Of a stretch of DNA of 49,779 nt, positions 2,388 through 40,011 are shown piece by piece (position 1 is the stretch's first letter; each line of letters starts with the position of its first letter). The notes beneath the pieces are model-generated. The model was not told the DNA's origin. It ran no database searches and was given only the letters and a program-made list of their open reading frames with translations. The DNA is from Nitrospinota bacterium (GTDB lineage: Bacteria > UBA8248): positions 1-49,779 of the forward strand of contig JASLZZ010000122.1 in NCBI GenBank assembly GCA_030754595.1, given 5' to 3'. Made by a program: the position numbers and the translations under genes.

Positions 2388-4694
2388 CTACATTCGTGCC
2401 TTTCTCCGCTGAATCGTCCGGAGCCAACCCTCCAGTGACTTGACCACATCGCTATGCGGCCCCGAATAGGATGGCTCCGCATCTTCAATAACCTCTTCGG
2501 CGGGCCGGGGCAAGTCCCCCTCCCCGCTTTCCGCCAGCCTGGCCTCAAGCTCCTGTATTTTCGCTTCAAGCCACGCCGAGTCCCGTTCCGCCGTCAACGC
2601 CTTGCGGCACAGATCGAGTGCCAGCGGGGCGTTCCCCTCATTAATATACATATCGATGATCCCGCTCATCATCTCCTCGGCCTTACTCAGAGCGGGCGAG
2701 GGAGCGGACTCGGGAGCAGGCTCCTCCATCGCCGCCATATCCCCGGTAATATCCGCCTCCCCCGGCGCCGCTTCGGCGGCCTCGGAGAGATCAGCGGGCT
2801 CAGTCTCGGGCGCGGCCTCGGGAGCGGGCTCCTCAGTCAGAGAGATCGATTCTTGAGGCAGGCCCTCCTGAGGCGGCGACTCTGGGGGCTCTGCCTCAAG
2901 ATTTGAAACCTCTGGAGTTGAAGACTCCGGAGTCAAAACCTGGGACTCTTCCTCCTCCTCGAAAACCACCGATTCGAGATAGACATCCTCCCCGGATTCG
3001 GCCTCCAATTCCGCCCCGGCCTCTCCCGGCTCATCGGAAGCCGAGGGCTCATCTGTGGACGGGGCCTCTTCGGCGGCGGCGTCATTTTCAATTTCCGCCA
3101 TTTCCTCGGCGAAAAGGGCGTCGAGATCATCTCCCTCCCCGGCGGCGTCCTCACCGAGGGCGGGCCCTTCAAGGGCGGGCTCCTCAACAGCGGGGCCTTC
3201 TTCTCCTTCGGGCACCTCTTCCAGAGCCGCCTCGGCGACCGGATCCGCTTCATCCGAAACCTCAGAAACCTCCGCGGCGATGGGCTCTTCCGCTATTATC
3301 GCCTCCGCATCGCCCGTGGAAATTTCGGCATCCTCCGGAAGAAGAGCCTCCTCCGGCGCCCCTTCCGGGACCTCCGCCGAAACGGACTCTCCAAGCTCCT
3401 CCTCGAACAGGGCATCCAAATCACCGAAGCCCTCGTCGGCCCCGGCTTCTTCCGCCCCGGCCTCCGCCGCAGCCTCTTCCCCGCCGGGCTCGTCGGGCGG
3501 CTCCCCGAGGGCGGCCAGATCGTCGGCCTCCTCGGCCAGCAGCACATCGAACTCGTTCAGATCGACCGCCCCGGCCTCCAATTCCGCACCGGCCTCCGCC
3601 GCAGCCTCTTCCCCGCCGGGCTCGTCGGGCGGCTCCCCGAGAGCGGCCAGATCGTCGGCCTCCGCCGCAGCCTCTTCCTCGCCGGGTTCGTCGGGCGGCT
3701 CCCCGAGGGCGGCCAGATCGTCGGACTCATCCACGGCATCCGCATCCGCTACAGGCGCGGGAGCGGATGGCTCCTCAGACTCATCGGCGAACAGGGCATC
3801 GAGATCGTCCACCTCACCGCCCGCGTCCGCCGCGGCAGGCGCGGGGGCGGCGGCCTCTTCCGGCTCATCGGCGAACAGGGCATCGAGATCGTCCACTTCG
3901 CCGCCAGCGGCCTCGTCAAGGATCGAATCGAAATCCTCAAGCTCTGGGGACTCGGCGGCCCCATCATCTCCTCCGGCAGCCTCGGCAAGGATGGCGTCAA
4001 AATCCTCAGGCTCAGACGCGGCCTCGGCGCCAACCTCGGGTGCGGCCCCGCCGCCGGCGCCGAGTTGATCCTGAAGATCGGAGATTTTTTCGAGGTAATC
4101 GGTATTCTCCGGGTCCTCTTCGGCGAGAGTTCGGTAGACATCCAGTGCTTTTTCGAGATGACCTTGGGAGACATAAAGCTCGGCGAGCGATTCGGTAGGC
4201 ACGGCATCGCCAGCCTCCTCGATCAGGGCCTCCCCGACCGACACCTCGCCCCTCGCGGGGGCGGAGGGGACGTAAGCCGGAGCGGCTCCGCCTTCCTTGA
4301 GAGCGGCTGCGGCGGCATCGCCCGGATCGAACATGCCGATCGCCACGAGAGCGCGGCGCACCCCTCCCTCGTCGCCCGACTTCTTGTGGCAATCCATGAG
4401 GAAGCGCTGTGCGGCGAGATTCCAGGGGGATCGCGCAATCGCCTTTTCGAGTTCGCTCGCCGCGTCGCCGATTTGATCTTTCGCCAGGTAAATTTCGCCG
4501 AGAAGGACGCGGGGGGCGGTGTAGGCCGCGTGGTGCTGGAGGCCGCTCGTCAGAAGGTCGATGGCCTTATCGGCATCGCCCTTCTCCCAGTTGAGGCCGG
4601 CAAGCGGAAAAAACGCCGGGGAGGCCGGATCGTCGGCAAGCTGTGCCTCGAGAGCCTGAATCCTGGAATCGATATCGCCTAGTCGAGATGCCAT
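2388..4694 (-). CDS. Tetratricopeptide-repeat protein with a long acidic low-complexity repeat region
   Basis: TPR-like helices at the N-terminus (DPASPAFFPLA, LLGEIYLAK, TESLAELYVSQGH), then about 500 aa rich in E/D/A/P. Start placed at MASRLG (4694) to avoid overlap with the divergent gene. Confidence 0.8.
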   Translation of the reverse strand: MASRLGDIDSRIQALEAQLADDPASPAFFPLAGLNWEKGDADKAIDLLTSGLQHHAAYTAPRVLLGEIYLAKDQIGDAASELEKAIARSPWNLAAQRFLMDCHKKSGDEGGVRRALVAIGMFDPGDAAAAALKEGGAAPAYVPSAPARGEVSVGEALIEEAGDAVPTESLAELYVSQGHLEKALDVYRTLAEEDPENTDYLEKISDLQDQLGAGGGAAPEVGAEAASEPEDFDAILAEAAGGDDGAAESPELEDFDSILDEAAGGEVDDLDALFADEPEEAAAPAPAAADAGGEVDDLDALFADESEEPSAPAPVADADAVDESDDLAALGEPPDEPGEEEAAAEADDLAALGEPPDEPGGEEAAAEAGAELEAGAVDLNEFDVLLAEEADDLAALGEPPDEPGGEEAAAEAGAEEAGADEGFGDLDALFEEELGESVSAEVPEGAPEEALLPEDAEISTGDAEAIIAEEPIAAEVSEVSDEADPVAEAALEEVPEGEEGPAVEEPALEGPALGEDAAGEGDDLDALFAEEMAEIENDAAAEEAPSTDEPSASDEPGEAGAELEAESGEDVYLESVVFEEEEESQVLTPESSTPEVSNLEAEPPESPPQEGLPQESISLTEEPAPEAAPETEPADLSEAAEAAPGEADITGDMAAMEEPAPESAPSPALSKAEEMMSGIIDMYINEGNAPLALDLCRKALTAERDSAWLEAKIQELEARLAESGEGDLPRPAEEVIEDAEPSYSGPHSDVVKSLEGWLRTIQRRKARM
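3459..3896. repeat. Intragenic direct repeats (about 66 bp x3; about 33 bp x2)
   Basis: Encodes DDLAALGEPPDEPG(G/E)EEAAAEA three times and GGEVDDLDALFADE twice. Confidence 0.9.
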
Positions 4695-4856: not shown

Positions 4857-6986
4857 ATGATTCAAATTGGCATCGACGCCGGGGGAACATTCACGGATTT
4901 TTGGGTGACGGAGGACTCCACCGGCCTATCTCCCGAATACGAGGGAGCCCCCCATAAAACCCCCTCGATGCCGGAGGACCCCTCCCGGGCGGTCATCCGG
5001 GGGCTCGGGGAAATCGCCGCCGCGCGGGGGGTAACCACAGGGGATCTCCTCGAAGACACCCGCCTCATTGTCCACGGTACGACCGTTGCGACCAACGCCG
5101 TCCTCACCGAAAGCGGCGCCCGGGCCGGCCTCATCACCACCCAAGGTTTCAGGGATATTCTCGAAATGCGCCGGGGCTGGCGCGAGGATTTTTTCGACAA
5201 CAAGCGGCCGCTGCCCAAACCCCTCATCCGCCGGGCGCTGCGTCGCACGGTGGCGGGCCGCCTAGATGAGACCGGGGCCGAACTCGAACCCCTCGACGAG
5301 GCCAGTGTGCGCGAGGAGGCCCTGAGGCTCAGGGCGGAAGGCGCCGAGTCGGTCGCCCTTTGCTTCATGCACGCCTGGGCGAATCCGGAGCACGAAAAGC
5401 GGGCGGCCGAGATCGTACGCGAAACGTTCCCCGAGGCGTTTCTGACCGTCTCCTCGGAACTCTTGCCCCAGATTCGCCTCTTTGAGCGAGTGAGCACCTG
5501 CGCCTTCAACGCCTATGTCGGTCCCATCATCCAAAAATATCTGGAGAAGCTCGACAGCGCGCTTCGCGGACTCGGCTTCGGGGGCGCCTTCCTCATCATG
5601 GGCTCCCACGGCGGGGTCATGACCGTCCCCGTCGCCGCGCGGCGGGCCGCTGCCTCCCTGCTCTCGGGTCCGGCCGCGGCCCCCGTCGCCGCGGGCCGGG
5701 TGGCCGCTCCGCACGGAATCGAGGACTACATCGTCACCGACATGGGCGGGACCAGCTTCGATGTCGCTCTCGTCCAGGGCGGCGAGCCCCTCGTATCCCA
5801 GGAAAACTGGCTCGGCGGCAAGCGAATCGCCCTGCCCTCGCTGGACATCCACACCCTGGGCGCGGGCGGGGGAAGCGTCGCCTGGGCCGACCGGGGGGGC
5901 ATCCTCCACATCGGCCCCGAGAGCGCCGGGGCGAGCCCCGGGCCCGCCTGCTATGGCCAGGGCGGCCTGAAGCCCACGGCCACCGACGCCTGCCTGGCTC
6001 TGGGCTATCTGGACCCCGAATATTTTCTCGGAGGAAAGGTCCGCCTCGACCCCCAAGCCGCCGTCGAGGCCATTAACCGGGGCGTCGCCGAGCCGATGGG
6101 GATGCCGGCCGAGGAGGCGGCGCTGGGAATCTACGAGTTCATCTGCGTCCAGATGGCGGCGGGAATCCGCGAGGTGACCGTCCGCTGGGGGCTCGACCCG
6201 CGCGATTTCCTGATGCTGGCGGCGGGAGGGGCGGGACCGCTTCACGCCAATCACATCGCGCGCGAGCTGGGCATCTCCCTCATTATGGCTCCCAGGGACT
6301 CGGCCGTTTTTTGCGCGGCCGGCATGCTCGCCTCGGATCTGAAGTACGATCTTGCGGTAAGCTGGCGCGCGAGATTCATGGATCTCGTCCCGGAGGAGCT
6401 GGCCGCGCGCTTCCGTGCGCTCCGGGACCAGTGCCGGGCCGTCCTCGCCGAGCAGGGAGTCCCCGGGGAGCGCATGCGGTTCGAGCCGGGGATGGACATC
6501 CGCTACATCGGCCAATACCACGAGGTCGGCGTCCCCCTGCCCACCGAGATGATCGATGCACCCGATATCGGCGGCATCCTCGGCCGATTTCACGAGCGCC
6601 ACGACACCCTCTACGGCTACGCCACTAGCGAGATGCCGGCGGAGTGCATCACGATGCGCATGAGCGCCCGCGGCCGGATGGACCGCCCCGAAACCCTTTC
6701 CCCAAAAATAGGCGAGCCACCCGCCGCGCCCCTCCCCCACGGCCGCCGGCCGATTCGCCTGCCCGGCGAGCCGCGTCGCCTCCCCGCCGATGTCTACCGG
6801 TCACTCACACCGGGGCAGCGAATCGCCGGGCCCGCCATCGTCGAGCGGCCGAACACGACCGTTCTCGTCTTGGGGGATTACGAACTCGCCTGCGACGCCT
6901 CGGGCAACTATATTATCTGGCCCGAAACCAAGTCCGGGGAGATGCGCGCCCGCTTTCTTTCTGACGCCAGGGACGACCGGGGATGA
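4857..6986 (+). CDS. Hydantoinase A / 5-oxoprolinase family ATP-binding subunit
   Basis: GIDAGGTFTD, HGTTVATNA, SGPAA, DMGGTSFD, GAGGGS, PGPACYGQGG motifs. Confidence 0.93.
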   Translation: MIQIGIDAGGTFTDFWVTEDSTGLSPEYEGAPHKTPSMPEDPSRAVIRGLGEIAAARGVTTGDLLEDTRLIVHGTTVATNAVLTESGARAGLITTQGFRDILEMRRGWREDFFDNKRPLPKPLIRRALRRTVAGRLDETGAELEPLDEASVREEALRLRAEGAESVALCFMHAWANPEHEKRAAEIVRETFPEAFLTVSSELLPQIRLFERVSTCAFNAYVGPIIQKYLEKLDSALRGLGFGGAFLIMGSHGGVMTVPVAARRAAASLLSGPAAAPVAAGRVAAPHGIEDYIVTDMGGTSFDVALVQGGEPLVSQENWLGGKRIALPSLDIHTLGAGGGSVAWADRGGILHIGPESAGASPGPACYGQGGLKPTATDACLALGYLDPEYFLGGKVRLDPQAAVEAINRGVAEPMGMPAEEAALGIYEFICVQMAAGIREVTVRWGLDPRDFLMLAAGGAGPLHANHIARELGISLIMAPRDSAVFCAAGMLASDLKYDLAVSWRARFMDLVPEELAARFRALRDQCRAVLAEQGVPGERMRFEPGMDIRYIGQYHEVGVPLPTEMIDAPDIGGILGRFHERHDTLYGYATSEMPAECITMRMSARGRMDRPETLSPKIGEPPAAPLPHGRRPIRLPGEPRRLPADVYRSLTPGQRIAGPAIVERPNTTVLVLGDYELACDASGNYIIWPETKSGEMRARFLSDARDDRG

Positions 6987-8725
6987 GCGTGAACGGCATC
7001 GACCCCATCCTCGCCTCCGTCCTCCAGCGGCGGCTGCGCTCGATCACCGAGGAAATGGCCCTCACCCTCCTTCACACCACCCGCTCGCCCATCCTCTCGG
7101 AGGGCCGGGATTTCGCCACCGGCATCTACCGGACGAACGGCGACATGCTCGAGCAGACCGAGTACACCGCGCTCCTTGGCTTCGCCCTTCAACCCTCGCT
7201 CAAGGCCTGCATCGAATATTTCGGGGACGACATCGGGCCCGGCGACGTGATCTTTCACAACGACGTTTACAACGCCGGAAACCAGATCAACGATCTGGGC
7301 GTGTTCAAACCCATTTTCCTCGAGGGCGAGCTCGTCGCGTGGGCCGCCTGCAAGGCCCATCAGGCGGACCTGGGCGGGGGCGCTCCCGGCGGCTACAACC
7401 CGGGCGCCACCGAGGTCTGGCACGAGGGCCTTCGGGTGCCGCCCCTGAAGATGTGGGCGGGCGGGAAGCTCCGCCGGGATGTCTGGGACTTTCTCCTCGC
7501 CAACACCCGCCTCGACATCGTCGCCGAGGATGCAAAGGCCTGCGCCGGCTCCTGCAACGTGGGCGAGCGGCGCGTACTCGTTGTATTGGACCGCTACGGC
7601 CGCGATGTCTTCGACCGCCATATGGACTACGTCATCGACGGCGCCGAGCGGATCATGCGGGGCGAGATCGCCGCCATGCCCGACGGTGTGTACCGGGGCG
7701 AGTCGTTCCTCGCCAACGACGGTCATCAGGAGGGCGTCCGCCACAAAGTAGTCTGCACGGTCACCATCGCGGGCGATTCGATCAAATTCGACTACACGGG
7801 CTCGGCGGGCCCGACGCCCGGCTACGCGAACGCGCCGCTTCACGCCGCGACAAGCGGCCTGATGATCGCTGTCCTGATGAACGTCAATCCGCAGATTCCG
7901 CACAACGCGGGAATTCTCCGGCCCCTCGAAATGATCTTCCCCGAGAACTCGATGCTGAACGCCAAGTTCCCCCATGCCACCAGCTACGGCAACCACCTCA
8001 CCCACCAGATATGGGAGGCCGCCGTGAAGGCGCTCGCCCAGGCGGTGCCCCACAGCGTCACCGCCGGATGGAACAAGTGCTACTGGGGGATGTCGAGCGG
8101 TCTCGACGGGCGGAGCGGCCGCCGCTACGTCGATTTTTTCCTGTTCGCGATGAAGGGGGGATCGGGAGCAACCGAAGGCCTCGACGGCTTCGCCCATCTG
8201 GGCACGGTGATGACGGGCGGGGCGATGACCGCGCAGGACCCCGAAATGCACGAGGTCCAGACCCCCCACCGCCTTCATCACTTCGAATTCGAGATCGACT
8301 CGGCCGGCCCCGGACGCTGGCGCGGCGGGCTCGGCATTCGATCAAAGTGGACGATCCTGGGCCAGGACGCCAAGGTCATCATGTTCGGCCAGCAGACCGA
8401 GCCCGGGGAGGAGCCCTTCGGCCTCTTCGGCGGTAAGCCCGCCGGTCTCAACACCGCCCACCTCACCCATCCCGACGGGCGCCAACGCTGGCCCAAGGGC
8501 CACGAAATCATTCCGGACGCGGACGGCGCGGTTATCGAGATGACCGCTTCGGGCGGCGGCGGGTACGGGGACCCGAGACTGCGGCCCGCCGACCTGATCC
8601 GGGAAGAAGTGCGCGACGAAATTATTTCAATCGAATCGGCACGGCGCGACTACGGGGTGGCGCTCGATCCCCTGACGCTCGAAATCGATGAAGAGGAAAC
8701 CGCGCGCCGTCGGAAAAGGCCTTAA
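6983..8725 (+). CDS. Hydantoinase B / oxoprolinase family subunit
   Basis: PGDVIFHNDVY, AHQADLGG, DSAGPGRWRGGLG, GGGGYGDP motifs; ATGA overlap with subunit A. Confidence 0.93.
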   Translation: MSVNGIDPILASVLQRRLRSITEEMALTLLHTTRSPILSEGRDFATGIYRTNGDMLEQTEYTALLGFALQPSLKACIEYFGDDIGPGDVIFHNDVYNAGNQINDLGVFKPIFLEGELVAWAACKAHQADLGGGAPGGYNPGATEVWHEGLRVPPLKMWAGGKLRRDVWDFLLANTRLDIVAEDAKACAGSCNVGERRVLVVLDRYGRDVFDRHMDYVIDGAERIMRGEIAAMPDGVYRGESFLANDGHQEGVRHKVVCTVTIAGDSIKFDYTGSAGPTPGYANAPLHAATSGLMIAVLMNVNPQIPHNAGILRPLEMIFPENSMLNAKFPHATSYGNHLTHQIWEAAVKALAQAVPHSVTAGWNKCYWGMSSGLDGRSGRRYVDFFLFAMKGGSGATEGLDGFAHLGTVMTGGAMTAQDPEMHEVQTPHRLHHFEFEIDSAGPGRWRGGLGIRSKWTILGQDAKVIMFGQQTEPGEEPFGLFGGKPAGLNTAHLTHPDGRQRWPKGHEIIPDADGAVIEMTASGGGGYGDPRLRPADLIREEVRDEIISIESARRDYGVALDPLTLEIDEEETARRRKRP

Positions 8726-9018: not shown

Positions 9019-9528
9019 GTGAAGAAATCCAAGGCAAGCCAAACAATAATTACCTTGAAAGAATAGGAGCGACGCAAGGAGTTTGTCGGTTTCACCGACG
9101 AAGATGTGCAACTGCTTATGGAGTATAACCAAATCGCGGAAGTCCACGCGAACGAGGTTGTGGAAAAGTTGTATCAGCACTTCCTGCGATTTGAGGAAAC
9201 AAAAGCCTTCTTCCGGGACGACATGACGCTCCTCCGTGTTACGGACCTTCAGAAAGAGTACTTCCTCGGGCTAACGAAAGGCGACTATGGCGAAGAATAT
9301 TTGGCGAACCGCCTGCGCATTGGAATCCTCCATCAGCAACTTGGCTTGTCGCCCTGCTGGTATATGGGGTCGTATTCGATTTATTTGGAGTTGGTCATTT
9401 CCTTCGTACTGGCAGCTTATGGATCTGACCTTGAGAAAGCGCGGCGAACTCTGGTGGCTTTAGTCAAGATCATCCAGTTGGACCAAGAATTGGCAATGAC
9501 GGCTTATTTATTGTCCCCACTCCCGTAA
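9019..9528 (+). pseudogene. Protoglobin / globin-coupled-sensor globin domain with an in-frame TAG at 9064-9066 (intact ORF 9106..9528)
   Basis: ERRKEFVGFTDEDVQLL, LYQHFLRFEET, LQKEYF, RLRIGILHQQLGL, WYMGSY, IQLDQELAMTAY are typical sensor-globin features. The frame is open from GTG 9019 except for one TAG. Lower GC than the flanks. Confidence 0.65.
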
Positions 9529-9615: not shown

Positions 9616-10050
9616 TCAGGATGAAACCAGCGGGCCGCCGTACAGGCGGTGCTCGACCATGATTCAAAGATCCATGACGACCTTGAGGCCCGCCCGCTCG
9701 GCGCGGGCCGCGGCTTCCTCGTCGATGACGCCTTTTTGGAGCCAGATCGCCCGCGCCCCGGCGGCGATGGCTTCGTCCACCACCCCGCTCACGAAACGAC
9801 TCCGCCGGAAAACGTTCACCATCTCGGGGGGCTCGGGCAGCGCGGAGAGCCGGGGATAGCACCGCTCGCCGAGGAGTTCATCGTGACCGGGATTGACGGG
9901 AACAATCTCGTAGCCCGCCTGTTGCATGTAGACGCTCACGTAATGGCTGGGCCGGTGTTCCTTGGGCGAGAGACCCACCACGGCGATGCGCCGGAACTCC
10001 CGGAGCACCTGCCGGACGGCCCCTGAATCCTGAAAATCGGCGCCGCTCAT
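9616..10050 (-). CDS. YccU-family CoA-binding protein, predicted selenoprotein (TGA 9664-9666 = U129)
   Basis: IAVVGLSPK, IVPVNP, VFRRS, WLQKG motifs. The frame continues past the TGA as VVMDL-U-IMVEHRLY, versus the family pattern VVMDRCxxxEH. Confidence 0.8.
9629..9653 (-). promoter_or_regulatory. Candidate bacterial SECIS of the CoA-binding protein gene
   Basis: AGC-A-CCGCC-[UGUAC]-GGCGG-CCC-GCU hairpin; loop begins at +20 after the UGA. Confidence 0.5.
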
Positions 10051-10880
10051 TCGCTTATTTCTGCCTCCGGGGTCCGGTGGTCGCTTACTTCCCACTCCCT
10101 CAAATGGTCCCGGAGCGATTCGGGGCTGTCGGCCGCGCCTAAAAACGCGGCCACGGCCTCCTCGTCGGTATCGTAGAGCGGATAGCACGACGCCGGGGCC
10201 GCCCCGCCGGGCAGGTGGACCACCGCGTCCACCATGAACCCCGGTATATTCGTCCGCTCGGGTTTGTCCTCGAAAAACTTCGTCTCGACGATGCGCTCGG
10301 CGGTGAGGATGACGCCCTCGGAGGCCCGGGAGAGGAGCACATCCTCGAACGGGCCGCCGTCGATCCGCGCATTGCCGGCCGCGTCGGCGTGCTGAACGTG
10401 GACCACCGCCCAGTCGGGCCGGATTTTGGGGATCATGTAAACGCTCTTCCCCGTGTAGGGGTCCTCGGCCTGGAGGAACCCCGAGCTCGCCGGGGTGTCC
10501 GAGCCGTCGAACCCCGAGACCGGCTGGCTCGGAAGCCCATAGGCCGAGGCGCGCAGGCCCGCGATCACGCTGTAGCAGGCGTGCTCCACCACCCGGATTT
10601 CCCCGCTCTCGACCCCGCGCCGGTAGGAGGGCGCCATGCCGAAGAGGTTTTCGTAGCCGATGTAGCCCGCCCGCACCTCGGCCACCGCCCCCGCCGCGCA
10701 GAGGAGATCGATCTCGTAGGCCCCCGCCGTTTTAATCATGATGAGATTCCGGCGGCCCTGACGCGCAAGCTCGCGGGCGAAGGCCGACGGGGTGCGCGAG
10801 AGCGAATTGCCGCCCAGCGCGATCATCTGACCGTCCCGGACGAGGCCGCCGGCCTCTGAGAGAGATATCAGCTTGCTCAC
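10047..10880 (-). CDS. Family I CoA-transferase-fold alpha subunit (GctA/IpdA-like), Cys102 paralogue
   Basis: DLLCAAG, EHACYSVIAGLRASAYGLP, DPYTG, RPDWAVVHVQHADAAGNARI, VDAVVHLPGGAAP motifs; AGGAGG RBS before the GTG. Confidence 0.9.
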   Translation of the reverse strand: MSKLISLSEAGGLVRDGQMIALGGNSLSRTPSAFARELARQGRRNLIMIKTAGAYEIDLLCAAGAVAEVRAGYIGYENLFGMAPSYRRGVESGEIRVVEHACYSVIAGLRASAYGLPSQPVSGFDGSDTPASSGFLQAEDPYTGKSVYMIPKIRPDWAVVHVQHADAAGNARIDGGPFEDVLLSRASEGVILTAERIVETKFFEDKPERTNIPGFMVDAVVHLPGGAAPASCYPLYDTDEEAVAAFLGAADSPESLRDHLREWEVSDHRTPEAEISE

Positions 10881-10940: not shown

Positions 10941-11711
10941 TTAGCGCTCCACCCGGCGAAGCGCGGCGAACTCCGAGTAACGCACCCCCTCGGGATCGAT
11001 CTCGGCGAGGGCGGAGAGTTCATCCCCCGTAGGCGGGATTGTCACGGGTATTTCAGCACCCAAATCGAGCGGAAAACCCGTCCGCCCGGCCACCTCTTCC
11101 ACCGAAACGCCCGGATGAACGCTCCCCAGCTCAAGACCCTCATCGCGCATCTCCATCACGGCCAGCGGAGTGACCACCCGCGCCAGGTTGCCCGACTGGG
11201 TGACGAAATCCACCTTCTCGACAAAAGTGCGCCGGTCGTGCACCACCCGCCATATCACGATCCGCCGAGCCTGCTCCATGATGACCGACCCGCCCCCGCC
11301 TCCGGGCAGGCGAACCTTTGGGGCGGACGGCTCGCCGATGTAGCTCATGTTCACGCGGCCCGCCTTGTCGATCTGTGCGCCGCCCAGGTACATGAGATCG
11401 ACCCCGCCCCGCGCGAAAAGATCGTAGGCGTCGGCGTTCGAGAAGATCGCCGCCGCCCCCTGGCACAGTGCCGGATCGTTCGTGCTGAAGGGCAGCCGCT
11501 CGGGCCTCGGGTCCACAGAGCCGGCCACCTCGATGAGAACGCTCCCCGGCGCATGCAGCTTTTTTGCGAGAAAAATCGCCACCATCGGAAGCGGGGAGTT
11601 CACGCCGTGAAAGACGCGCTCGCCCTCGCGCAGCTCCCGGGCCAGGCAGACGGCCATTTGATCCGCCGCATCGCGCGCGGCCTGAATTTCGCTTTCCGTT
11701 TTCAAGGTCAT
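10941..11711 (-). CDS. Family I CoA-transferase-fold beta subunit (GctB/IpdB-like)
   Basis: LHAP, LGGAQIDKAGRVN, RLPGGGGG, TFVEKVDFVT, VVTPLAVM, SVHPGVS...TGF motifs. Confidence 0.9.
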   Translation of the reverse strand: MTLKTESEIQAARDAADQMAVCLARELREGERVFHGVNSPLPMVAIFLAKKLHAPGSVLIEVAGSVDPRPERLPFSTNDPALCQGAAAIFSNADAYDLFARGGVDLMYLGGAQIDKAGRVNMSYIGEPSAPKVRLPGGGGGSVIMEQARRIVIWRVVHDRRTFVEKVDFVTQSGNLARVVTPLAVMEMRDEGLELGSVHPGVSVEEVAGRTGFPLDLGAEIPVTIPPTGDELSALAEIDPEGVRYSEFAALRRVER

Positions 11712-11715
11712 TTGA

Positions 11716-12525
11716 TCATACCTGTAGATACGTCTCGGCTTCGGCGAGATATTCGGCGAGACCGTCCGCCGTTCGGGAAACCTCCATGTAGCGGCGCATC
11801 CTCGCCTCGTCCACTCCGTAGGCCGGCGAGCAGCTGCAGGGCGCGGCCCCCCCCGGCGCATGAGCGACGGCGGCCACCAGGAAGCCGGGAATGGCCGTCA
11901 TCTCGGGCTCCTCTCTAAAGCGCTCGGCGGGCGCCAATTTCTCGGCGGTGACGATGACCCCCTTCGCCGCGCGCATCATTTCGATATCGAAATATCGCGG
12001 GCCGTAGATGCGCGCGTTCCCCTCCCCGTCGGCTTCGTGGACGTGGATGATAGCCCAGTCGGGACGGAGCGCGGGGATGGCGTACAGCGTTTCGCCGGTG
12101 TACGGGTCATCGATGGTTTGGATTCCGCTGCGCTCGGGGATATCGCTTCCCTTGAACCCGCGCAGGGGCTGGAAGGGGTTGCCGTAGGCTGCGGCCCGCA
12201 GCCCCGCGAGGATGCTCGCTCAGGCGTGCTCGGTCAGCCCGGCCAACCCCTTTTCGATGGACCGACGGTAGTTCGGGGCGAGGCCGTAGCTGGCCTCGAA
12301 GGTGACGATTCCGCTCAGGACCCGGCCCAGCGCCCCCGCCGCGCAAAGGAGGTCGGCGTCGTAGCCCGGAGAGGGTTTGATGAGGGTGAGATTCTTCCGT
12401 CCGGCGCGGGCCAGCTCGTGAAGAAGGGTCGAGGGCGCGCGGTGGAGCAGGCTTCCGCTCGTGGAGATGGCTTCCCCGTCCTTGATCAGTCCCGCGGCCT
12501 CGGCCACCGTGATTAATTTCATCAT
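11716..12525 (-). CDS. Family I CoA-transferase-fold alpha subunit, predicted selenoprotein (TGA 12220-12222 = U102), 269 aa
   Basis: ORFs 12220..12570 and 11716..11979 share one frame, separated by a single TGA. Readthrough gives LTEHA-U-ASILAGLRAAAYGNPFQP...DPYTG...RPDWAIIHVHEADGEGNARI, colinear with the paralogue at 10047..10880. Confidence 0.82.
12187..12203 (-). promoter_or_regulatory. Candidate bacterial SECIS of the alpha-subunit gene
   Basis: GGCUGC-[GGGCC]-GCAGCC perfect 6-bp stem; loop at +23 after the UGA; not maintained in the Cys paralogue. Confidence 0.5.
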
Positions 12526-12619: not shown

Positions 12620-13884
12620 TCAACCGGCTAATAAACCCGCCGCACAACCGGCCACCGGTTCGGCGAAGGCCGGGGCCGGCTCCTCGCTGATGGCCCAACT
12701 CATCCCCGCCGCGACGAAACAGATCATGGCGGACGCCAGAAAAATCGGCTGATAGTTCCCCCAGAGGTCGTGAACGAGTCCTCCGGCATAGGCGCCCGCC
12801 GCCGAGCCAATCTGGTGGCTCAAAAAAACGAGGCCGAACACCGTGCCGCCCGAGCGGTTCCCGAAAAGAGTGGTCGAGAGAGCCGTGGTGGGGGGTACGG
12901 TCGCGAAATCCACCAGGCCGAAGGCCACCTCGAATACGAACAGCATCACCGGATCGCTGACGAACATGAGGAAAAAAAGCGATACCGCGCGCCCCACGTA
13001 AATCCAGCCCAAAAGCCTTTTGTGCCCCCAACGGTCCGAGATCGCTCCGGAGATGAGAGTCCCCAACGCGTTAAACGCCCCGAGCGTTCCGAAGGCCGTG
13101 GCGGCGGTGAAGGTGTCGATGTGAATTTCCTCGGCATAGGGAATCAGGTGCGTTTCGATGAGACCCGCCGTCGTGAACCCGCAAATCCCAAAACTGCCGA
13201 TGAGCCACCAGAAATTCACCTCCCGGGCGATCCGGGCAAGAGGATGCGGACGCCCCCCCTCCCCCTCGCGGGGTTGCTCCCCTCTCACCACCTCCGGCGG
13301 ATCGTCCCTGAAGAAAAGCAGGAATATAGGAACGGCGATGAACAGCACGGCCGCCCCGGACCAGAAGTAGGCCGTCCGCCAGCCGTAGCGTTCCATGAAC
13401 GCCGCGAAAGCGGGCAATAATATGAGCTGGCCGGCGGCTCCTCCGGCGGCGACTACGCCGACTGCGAACGCCCGGTTCCGGCTGAACCATCGGGAGATCG
13501 CCACCGCCGCGGTCACGTTGGCCGAGCCTCCGGCCGCCAGCAACAGCCCGCCCCCGAACACGAGGTAGACGTGCCAGAGACTCTGGATGAACCCCATCGC
13601 CACGGTGAATACGGCCATTAAAATAAAGCTGCCCACGAAAACCACCCGGGGGCCATAGATATCGGCCCAGCGCCCCGAAATCGCCCGGGCGAGGCCATTG
13701 CTCAGAAACCCGATGGACCCCACCAGGCTGATGGCCGCCCTGTCCCAGCCAAACTTCACCTCCCAAGGCCGTATCAGCAGGCCGAATGTGGAGCGAACCC
13801 CCATCGGAATGGCCATGGCGAGGAAGCAAAGCGCACGATCACCCAGGCGTAGGAACTTTCGCGCTCATCCGCTTGATTCATCAT
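12620..13884 (-). CDS. MFS transporter with an apparent 1-nt frameshift near 13834
   Basis: GRWADIYGPR and GAISDRWGHK MFS loop motifs. The N-terminus MMNQADERESSYAWVIV (ATG 13884, with RBS) is out of frame by one base with ALCFLAMAIPMGVRSTFG. Confidence 0.85.
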
Positions 13885-39435: not shown

Positions 39436-40011
39436 TCAGCCCCCCCGGGCGGCCTTGAGCTCGGCCAGCTTTTCGGCCTGCTCAGGGTGGAGCTTCACTC
39501 CGAGGGCGCTGACGAGGCGGTTCATGTGGTTGAAGTAGCTGGTGACCATCACGACGTCGAGAATCTCCTCGTCGGCTAGCCCTGCGTCTCTAAGCGGGGC
39601 GAGATCGGCTTCCTCCATCCGGCTTAAGGAAAGGGTGAGTTTTTCGGCGTAGGCGAGGACCGCCCGCATTTTGGAATCGAGCCCCTCGAAATCGCCCGCC
39701 TCGAGACGCACCGGAAGGTCAATGTCTCCGCTCAGCCTCGCGAGCACCTGCCCGTGGGAGGTTTTTCAGTAATAACATCCGTTCACGCCCGAAACGCGGA
39801 CTGCGATCATTTCCTTTTCGACCCGGCTTAGCCCCGAATCGCCCTCCATGAGCGAGACGAACATCGACTGATTCGCCCGGAGGTGGTTTTCCCGAATGCT
39901 CATGATCGAGGTTGTGCTCGAGACGAACCCGCGCCTGTCTCGCGAGGCATCGAAGTAGCGCTTGAGTATTCCGCCCGCTTCGCCTTCTGGAACCGTCCTG
40001 ATCCAGGCCAT
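39436..40011 (-). CDS. AhpD/carboxymuconolactone-decarboxylase-like peroxidase-related selenoprotein (CYYU; TGA 39766-39768), 191 aa
   Basis: The two track ORFs are one frame: EMIAVRVSGVNGCYY-U-KTSHG...YAEKLT...FNHMNRL. The family motif is NxCxYCxxxH. Confidence 0.9.
39736..39761 (-). promoter_or_regulatory. Candidate bacterial SECIS of the AhpD-like gene
   Basis: CCUC-CCA-CGGGC-[AGGU]-GCUCG-C-GAGG; loop containing GGU at +17 after the UGA. Confidence 0.6.

Follow-up and report, generated by a model that had tools for sequence, protein, structure and literature searches.

Enzymes that share the two-subunit class I coenzyme A (CoA)-transferase fold are not all transferases. In class I CoA-transferases the catalytic glutamate sits in a SENG motif, and in the founder of the branch considered here, the glutaconate CoA-transferase GctAB of Acidaminococcus fermentans (PDB 1POI), this residue is Glu54 of GctB. 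The 3-methylglutaconyl-CoA decarboxylase AibAB of Myxococcus xanthus (PDB 5MZW-5N03) has the same two-subunit Gct-like fold, and Cys56 of its AibB subunit replaces the catalytic glutamate of glutaconate CoA-transferases, a cysteine being proposed as proton donor instead (PMC7756340). Likewise, IpdAB, the actinobacterial ring-opening hydrolase of the steroid intermediate COCHEA-CoA (PDB 6CO6, 6CO9, 6COJ and 6CON), carries Gly57 in its beta subunit where glutaconate CoA-transferase has Glu54, and the enzyme is reported to be without CoA-transferase activity (PMC5380842). Here we describe a related locus from a Nitrospinota bacterium, carried by a contig of 49,779 nucleotides (nt) that was analyzed over its whole length and is called the window below (JASLZZ010000122.1, assembly GCA_030754595.1), in which the gene for the alpha subunit contains an in-frame TGA at codon 102. 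Comparison with orthologues and homologues gives good support to the view that this is a genuine selenoprotein gene of an uncatalogued family. Taken as a whole, we hold it quite probable that the gene encodes the selenocysteine (Sec)-containing alpha subunit of a two-subunit enzyme of the class I CoA-transferase fold, that a hairpin serves as its selenocysteine insertion sequence (SECIS) element, and that the enzyme is not a transferase.

The source assembly comprises 3.55 Mb in 138 contigs and is 96.9% complete. The features on which the argument turns are these:

11716..12525, minus strand: alpha subunit gene (GctA/AibA/IpdA-like, CoA_trans), 269 codons including the putative Sec102, plus a terminal TGA; from translation and PF01144
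12220..12222, minus strand: codon 102, TGA, predicted to be read as selenocysteine; conserved in orthologues, Cys in homologues
12186..12204, minus strand: SECIS-like hairpin GGGCUGCG-GGC-CGCAGCCU, +19 to +37 from the U of UGA; RNAalifold consensus
10941..11711, minus strand: beta subunit gene, 256 amino acids, PF01144, with the motif L-I-E61-V62-A-G-S; start taken from the sequence and from orthologue starts
10047..10880, minus strand: Cys paralogue of the alpha subunit, 277 amino acids, PF01144; Cys102 codon TGC at 10575..10577

The alpha subunit frame begins behind a GGAGAGG Shine-Dalgarno-like motif ahead of its ATG, contains a single internal TGA, at codon 102, and then continues for 167 codons, a count given in the original prediction and borne out by translation. 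Its product matches PF01144 with 70.2 bits against a cut-off of 23, and the product of the beta subunit gene matches the same family with 71.7 bits. The TGA had been placed exactly opposite Cys102 of the paralogue. Indeed, the two proteins align over 265 residues without a gap (49% identity), which sets the TGA against the TGC at 10577..10575, and the peptides quoted for this comparison, GLAGLTEHA-U-ASILAGLRAAAYG and GEIRVVEHA-C-YSVIAGLRASAYG, both match the sequence.

Orthologues with exactly one TGA are present in 29 of 61 relatives searched, and in all 29, which were read in detail (60-100% identity), the TGA is codon 102 and lies in the common context TEHA-U-[AP]-[ST]-[IV]-LAGLRAAAYG. Across the phylum, the TGA form occurs at 35 loci in 34 of 51 genomes, all within one family, where it is distributed over genera g1 (5 of 5 genomes), g9 (4 of 4), g8 (21 of 23), g5 (1 of 1) and g4 (3 of 4). 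Among the same 51 genomes, genera g2, g3, g6 and g7 and three other families have Cys forms only or no gene. The TGA column is fixed among 35 distinct orthologous DNA sequences. A scan of one genome per species (about 185,000 species), made with patterns that are specific to the Nitrospinota clade and silent on other clades, returned 32 loci, all with the TGA and labeled, where a taxon was given, as Nitrospinota, Nitrospinaceae or ‘Candidatus Tectomicrobia’. Metagenome loci reached via the beta subunit carry the same TGA and hairpin in seven of seven cases.

Every other form of the protein has Cys at this position. Tested for variability, column 102 holds Cys in all 115 full-length homologues (45-54% identity) from a collection of 5.8 billion proteins and in all 28 distinct Nitrospinota paralogues, while every orthologue has TGA. 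No other Cys of the subfamily is invariant; Cys232, which ranks second, is present in 80 of the 115. Sec102 would stand in for a Cys that is invariant across the subfamily.

That the TGA might reflect a pseudogene or an assembly error has negligible probability and is already refuted by conservation, as the same codon stands in 35 distinct sequences from 34 genomes. Also, coding constraint is equal on both sides of it: in 150 divergent pairs, the ratio of nonsynonymous to synonymous change (dN/dS) has a median of 0.127 before the TGA (codons 2-101) and of 0.129 after it (codons 103-185). An isolated nonsense change, a possibility that the original prediction had raised, does not fit a TGA shared by two-thirds of the phylum genomes with purifying selection downstream. 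The stretch is near-identical (at least 0.91 of sampled words) in 16 DNA runs from nine studies, of which 12 runs are possible sources of the same DNA, and the TGA is unchanged in DNA run X13, which may itself be such a source. In each of three RNA libraries, a single short contig is identical to the window, at positions 12100-12290 in X18 (across both TGA and hairpin), at 11900-12056 in X20 and at 11029-11180 in X17; as these could stem from carried-over DNA, they do not prove transcription.

If UGA102 instead terminates translation, the locus would be a split gene that yields a 101-residue N-terminal piece and a re-initiated C-terminal piece. Public gene calls divide the gene in just this way: of 51 short homologues, 36 have ...LTEHA as their last residues and 30 of these have a length of exactly 101 amino acids, and C-terminal fragments of 150-167 amino acids are on public record. 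However, in no lineage is the gene split at any point other than the invariant Cys column, and the called C-terminal fragments differ in their start sites. Moreover, the conserved hairpin and frozen synonymous sites described below would have no role in a split gene, and the genome possesses Sec machinery. We consider termination at UGA102 very improbable. The 5.8-billion-protein collection holds no full-length protein above 54% identity, closer relatives being present as halves only, and reading through the TGA would correct a systematic annotation error in which dozens of public protein clusters are halves of the alpha gene.

The machinery for Sec insertion is encoded in the source genome. 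A tRNA-Sec scores 73.6 bits (cut-off 47) and has the anticodon TCA according to ARAGORN, and profile matches exceed curated cut-offs for selB (364.5 bits), selA (551.8 bits) and selD (345 bits), the last of which itself contains one TGA. Across the phylum, selB is above cut-off in 48 of 51 genomes, and the three misses are genomes of 67-91% completeness. Near-cognate decoding or a changed code, by which UGA102 would specify Cys, Trp or Gly from the standard set of amino acids, would likewise keep the frame open, and nothing specific speaks for it. However, TGA is the ordinary stop codon of the alpha gene itself and of 13 of the 29 orthologues, and the counterpart of the site is Cys, the usual exchange partner of Sec, in a genome in which a SECIS-like hairpin and full Sec machinery are present. 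We give this alternative almost no weight. From the comparative sequence evidence, UGA102 is very probably decoded as selenocysteine.

Bacterial SECIS elements have an apical loop with a G located approximately 16-37 nt from the UGA, as in the bSECISearch model. RNAalifold analysis of 33 distinct 63-nt segments yields an 8-bp hairpin in columns 19-37 with the loop GGC (or, alternatively, 6 bp with the loop GGGCC), which begins 16 nt past the TGA and whose loop starts at +26/+27. We propose that UGA102 would be decoded as Sec via this in-frame hairpin, which would act as a SECIS element for SelB.

The original prediction had drawn a perfect GGCUGC/GCAGCC stem from codons 108-113 (GGG CTG CGG GCC GCA GCC) and had set it against the paralogue codons GGC CTG CGC GCC TCG GCC; the codons of both genes are as it gave them, and the stem is indeed contained in codons 108-113 of the alpha gene. 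In 35 distinct sequences, codons 108-114 (GGG CUG CGG GCC GCA GCC UAC) show near-zero synonymous change, and columns 108, 109, 110 and 113 are the only ones to use a single codon among the 79 columns with invariant degenerate residues between codons 5 and 180. By comparison, columns 108-114 of the 28 Cys paralogues have codon entropies of 1.2-1.75 bits despite nearly the same residues (G-L-R-A-S/A-A-Y). The comparison thus gives an 8-bp consensus and frozen synonymous sites but no covariation. Because the stem is invariant, support for the hairpin comes from these frozen sites rather than from compensatory change. Two one-sided compatible changes are present, from U-A to U-G in two sequences and from G-C to G-U in three.

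We also compared the hairpin with those at other TGA codons of the source genome by using a rule with three requirements: 5 bp or more of uninterrupted stem, three or more G-C pairs, and a loop that opens with GG between +17 and +30. Of 19 TGA sites in genes of known selenoprotein families, 8 satisfy it, compared to 3.0% of all 96,760 TGA triplets of the genome, and the 8-bp class that includes the codon-102 site amounts to 0.31% of these triplets. The 19 sites, which lie in selD and in AhpD/CMD-like and peroxiredoxin (Prx)-like genes, have hairpins at similar distances, often with GGUC-type loops, and one Prx-like gene has the apex GCGGGCCGC in common with the codon-102 hairpin. A small GCGAG/CUCGC hairpin located right after the UGA in the source genome was rejected as a candidate, as its register is not conserved and only two of its pairs are left in the consensus.

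A check of selenoprotein catalogues, suggested with the original prediction, found no CoA-transferase or PF01144 entry among the 119 prokaryotic selenoprotein families in Table 1 of a 2026 review (PMC13188914). In the main texts of BSepDB and deep-Sep, neither ‘CoA’ nor ‘transferase’ occurs, and in that of Peng 2016, neither ‘CoA’ nor ‘CoA-transferase’. No CoA-transferase selenoprotein is named in the titles and abstracts found on selenocysteine with CoA-transferase, glutaconate, Nitrospina or selenoproteomes. NCBIfam release 20 has no dedicated model for the protein and yields only sub-threshold matches to pcaI and atoD, and public pipelines give genes of the subfamily the name ‘glutaconate CoA-transferase’. 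The locus would add a selenoprotein family in a fold that was not known to use selenium. The statement that it lies outside the classical thiol-oxidoreductase folds is true, but the case is not unique, since non-redox selenoproteins are already catalogued (PMC13188914). Among them are a CTP-synthase-related glutamine amidotransferase and a methylated-DNA-protein-cysteine methyltransferase, which have in-frame UGA codons, Cys homologues and coding-region hairpins. These proteins likewise have Sec in a nucleophile-type position and a fold other than that of thioredoxin, although their folds and chemistry differ from those considered here.

The nearest solved structures offer some guidance to the role of residue 102. 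AibAB is the best solved relative for both subunits, with AibA (5MZW) matching the alpha subunit at 1.5e-31 and AibB being the best PDB match of the beta subunit at 1e-31. The alpha subunit also matches GctA (1POI, 2.2e-28) and IpdA (6CON, 6COJ and 6CO6, 7e-28 to 6e-25), and GctAB matches the beta subunit at 5.8e-20. At the Sec column, AibA has Gly (within REHDG), GctA has Gln and IpdA has the second Glu of its EMDEG segment, where the Nitrospinota protein has Sec and its homologues have Cys. The alignment with this Glu, which the original prediction had cited, was reproduced by HMMER. IpdAB resembles the new enzyme further in that its key residue lies in the alpha subunit, at the Sec102 column. 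Entries 6CO6 and 6COJ have Glu and Ala there, respectively, which is their sole difference over the 90 residues compared and a sign that the depositors saw reason to replace this Glu. We take it to be Glu105, which Crowe et al. reportedly proposed in 2018 as the catalytic base of the COCHEA-CoA hydrolase. Sec102 is likely to be a residue of the catalytic site, to judge from these alignments. IpdA differs from the alpha subunit in most other respects, as identity is only about 25-30% and the host here is a marine Nitrospinota bacterium, and steroid ring C/D catabolic gene context is absent both at this locus and at the loci read in other genera.

The beta subunit bears on whether the enzyme transfers CoA. 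In an ungapped HMMER alignment, AibB Cys56 falls on Val62 of the Nitrospinota protein, and as a check on the numbering, AibB Glu72 falls 16 residues farther on, at Asn78 (numbered from the ATG at 11711). The canonical column of the catalytic Glu is Val in 72 and Ile in 48 of 120 beta homologues, so that all 120 have one or the other. Thus, the beta subunit has Val where GctB has its catalytic Glu54, and it carries Val62 and Asn78 in place of the Cys56 and Glu72 that are the signature of AibAB. We note that no aib pathway genes were seen near the Nitrospinota locus. We infer that the enzyme is a non-transferase because its beta subunit lacks the glutamate that forms covalent intermediates in real CoA-transferases, and on the strength of these alignments we favor this conclusion by a modest degree.

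The enzyme is probably AibAB/IpdAB-like and acyl-CoA-transforming. Like the decarboxylase AibAB and the ring-opening hydrolase IpdAB, it would convert the acyl moiety of an acyl-CoA that it binds, and its substrate is probably a dicarboxylic or oxo-acyl-CoA. Residue 102 of the alpha subunit, Cys or Sec, would then be the distinguishing catalytic residue of the subfamily. In the mechanism we envision, the selenolate of Sec102 (or the thiolate in Cys forms) would act directly on the acyl group, as a nucleophile or as a proton shuttle. More tentative is the proposal that selenium serves as a carbon-directed catalyst, with the selenolate attacking or protonating the acyl moiety of the CoA thioester (through a seleno-hemiketal, a selenoester or an enolate proton shuttle) in a reaction that cleaves C-C bonds, decarboxylates or isomerizes; we regard this as possible but rather doubtful.

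Several observations weigh against the overall reading of a Sec-containing non-transferase with a SECIS hairpin. None of the 10 hairpin pairs shows compensatory covariation among the 33 sequences, their stem being invariant, and fewer than half of the known-family TGA sites (the 8 of 19 given above) satisfy the hairpin rule, which is crude and unvalidated as a SECIS model. An AlphaFold2 monomer model made from a 29-sequence alignment has a mean predicted local distance difference test score (pLDDT) of 67.5, which falls below 50 over residues 93-134, including Sec102. The gene neighborhood varies by genus and points to no pathway. Finally, beta subunits of the clade have a Glu one residue before the canonical column, and a one-residue register error or a bulge could make this Glu61 catalytic; in alignments to E. 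coli AtoA, the registers given by MAFFT and BLAST disagree. Placement of the SENG glutamate based on AtoA was rejected owing to these conflicting registers, and the alignment anchored on AibB was preferred.

The last of these points leads to an alternative in which selenocysteine is truly inserted yet the enzyme works as a conventional CoA-transferase, with beta Glu61 performing the covalent chemistry and Sec102 tuning binding or protecting the site. Glu61 adjoins the canonical column and is kept in all 23 of the distinct beta sequences from genome loci, the oxyanion-type motif PGGGG known from CoA-transferases is likewise retained, and the remote alignments to AtoA may be off by one or two residues. 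Over the 120 beta homologues, however, the residue at codon 61 is Glu in 61, Asn in 42, Ser in 14 and Gly in 3. The 14 with Ser are close homologues, which means that Glu61 is not conserved even in the clade; at locus L138 a TGA-bearing alpha subunit is paired with a beta subunit of the ‘LISVAGA’ type, which has Ser at codon 61; and beta partners of Cys-type alpha subunits have Asn at the Glu61 position. Furthermore, the ungapped, anchored alignment to AibB (E = 1e-31) places Val at the catalytic column. We judge a conventional transferase to be unlikely. As an observation in its own right, Glu61 is typical of the partners of Sec-type alpha subunits, with Ser in the 14 close homologues and Asn in the partners of Cys-type subunits.

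The interpretation of a Sec-dependent enzyme that is not a transferase has several consequences. With Sec at the site of the key catalytic residue of a related enzyme, a non-redox role for selenium becomes testable. Members of the subfamily, which have the invariant alpha Cys and lack the beta Glu, are automatically named glutaconate CoA-transferases and are probably not transferases. The finding also suggests that selenium supply matters to Nitrospinota, and the source genome holds many other TGA-containing genes. If selenium were indeed directed at carbon, this would be selenoenzyme chemistry without described precedent in the CoA-transferase fold, established in the near-core genome of the principal nitrite oxidizers of the sea, and it would imply an unrecognized selenium demand of nitrite oxidation in oxygen-poor seawater.

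In a quick, unrooted maximum-likelihood tree, the 35 Sec forms lie on one side of a single branch with a Shimodaira-Hasegawa-like approximate likelihood ratio test (SH-aLRT) value of 100, and they group with Cys forms from outside the phylum, not with the Nitrospinota Cys paralogues. Because Cys is universal elsewhere, we infer that the change was from Cys to Sec. The Sec variant is probably not confined to Nitrospinota. Two public protein clusters, P0288 and P0289, contain 102-residue proteins with 58-60% identity that end in ...VAEHA or ...VKEHA, directly before the Cys/Sec column, and from these sequences they are probably Sec forms of another lineage.

Two further genes belong to the arrangement at the locus:

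12620..13816, minus strand: major facilitator superfamily (MFS) transporter, carboxylate-transporter-like, directly upstream of the alpha subunit gene; PF07690, 2.1e-63
9664..10050, minus strand: small CoA-binding protein (CoA_binding_2); PF13380, 4.9e-39

On the minus strand of the source genome, the order is thus MFS transporter, Sec-type alpha subunit, beta subunit, Cys-type alpha subunit and small CoA-binding protein. The ATG of the beta subunit gene lies 4 nt past the alpha stop codon, and at cleanly called orthologue loci the two genes are separated by 2-18 nt or overlap by 4 nt. The stop codon of the Cys paralogue is overlapped by the ATG of the small CoA-binding protein gene (ATGA). 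The NCBIfam models closest to the transporter are those of lactate and oxalate/formate transporters, every one of which scores below its cut-off. Genes near the operon encode hydantoinase A/B, a protoglobin, a RidA-like protein and two short-chain dehydrogenases/reductases. The hydantoinase/oxoprolinase A/B pair and the protoglobin gene adjoin the operon on the opposite strand (window positions 4857-8725 and 9106-9528, both plus strand), and the NCBIfam model closest to the pair is caprolactamase, far below its cut-off.

In other genera, the surroundings of the Sec pair differ. At loci L055 and L056 of genus g8 (genomes G024 and G015) and L057 of genus g4 (genome G007), it is flanked by an AhpD/CMD-like gene and an RraA-like gene (aldolase/oxaloacetate decarboxylase family), and at L055 and L056 a two-part UxaA-like dehydratase adjoins it as well. 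The best NCBIfam model for the AhpD/CMD-like flank is ‘YciW-related (seleno)protein’, again below cut-off. Together, the AhpD/CMD-like gene, the Sec pair and the RraA-like gene may form a functional unit that is conserved. In genus g1, the Cys paralogue comes immediately after the beta subunit gene of the Sec pair; in other genera it is located far off with its own beta subunit gene, together with a PfkB kinase gene and two Amidohydro_2 genes. A second beta homologue of the source genome lies on another contig (C13, positions 2838-3560), with 46% identity and one TAG inside the match.

The source genome looks rich in selenoproteins, to judge from its reading frames. In-frame TGA codons were observed in 10 of 23 matches to the CMD family and in 8 of 16 matches to AhpC/TSA, in addition to selD. 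The window itself includes an AhpD/CMD-like gene (39436-40011, minus strand) with an in-frame TGA at 39766-39768 within a C-Y-Y-U (CxxU) motif. This gene is a member of a catalogued selenoprotein family, and gene callers would truncate it too.

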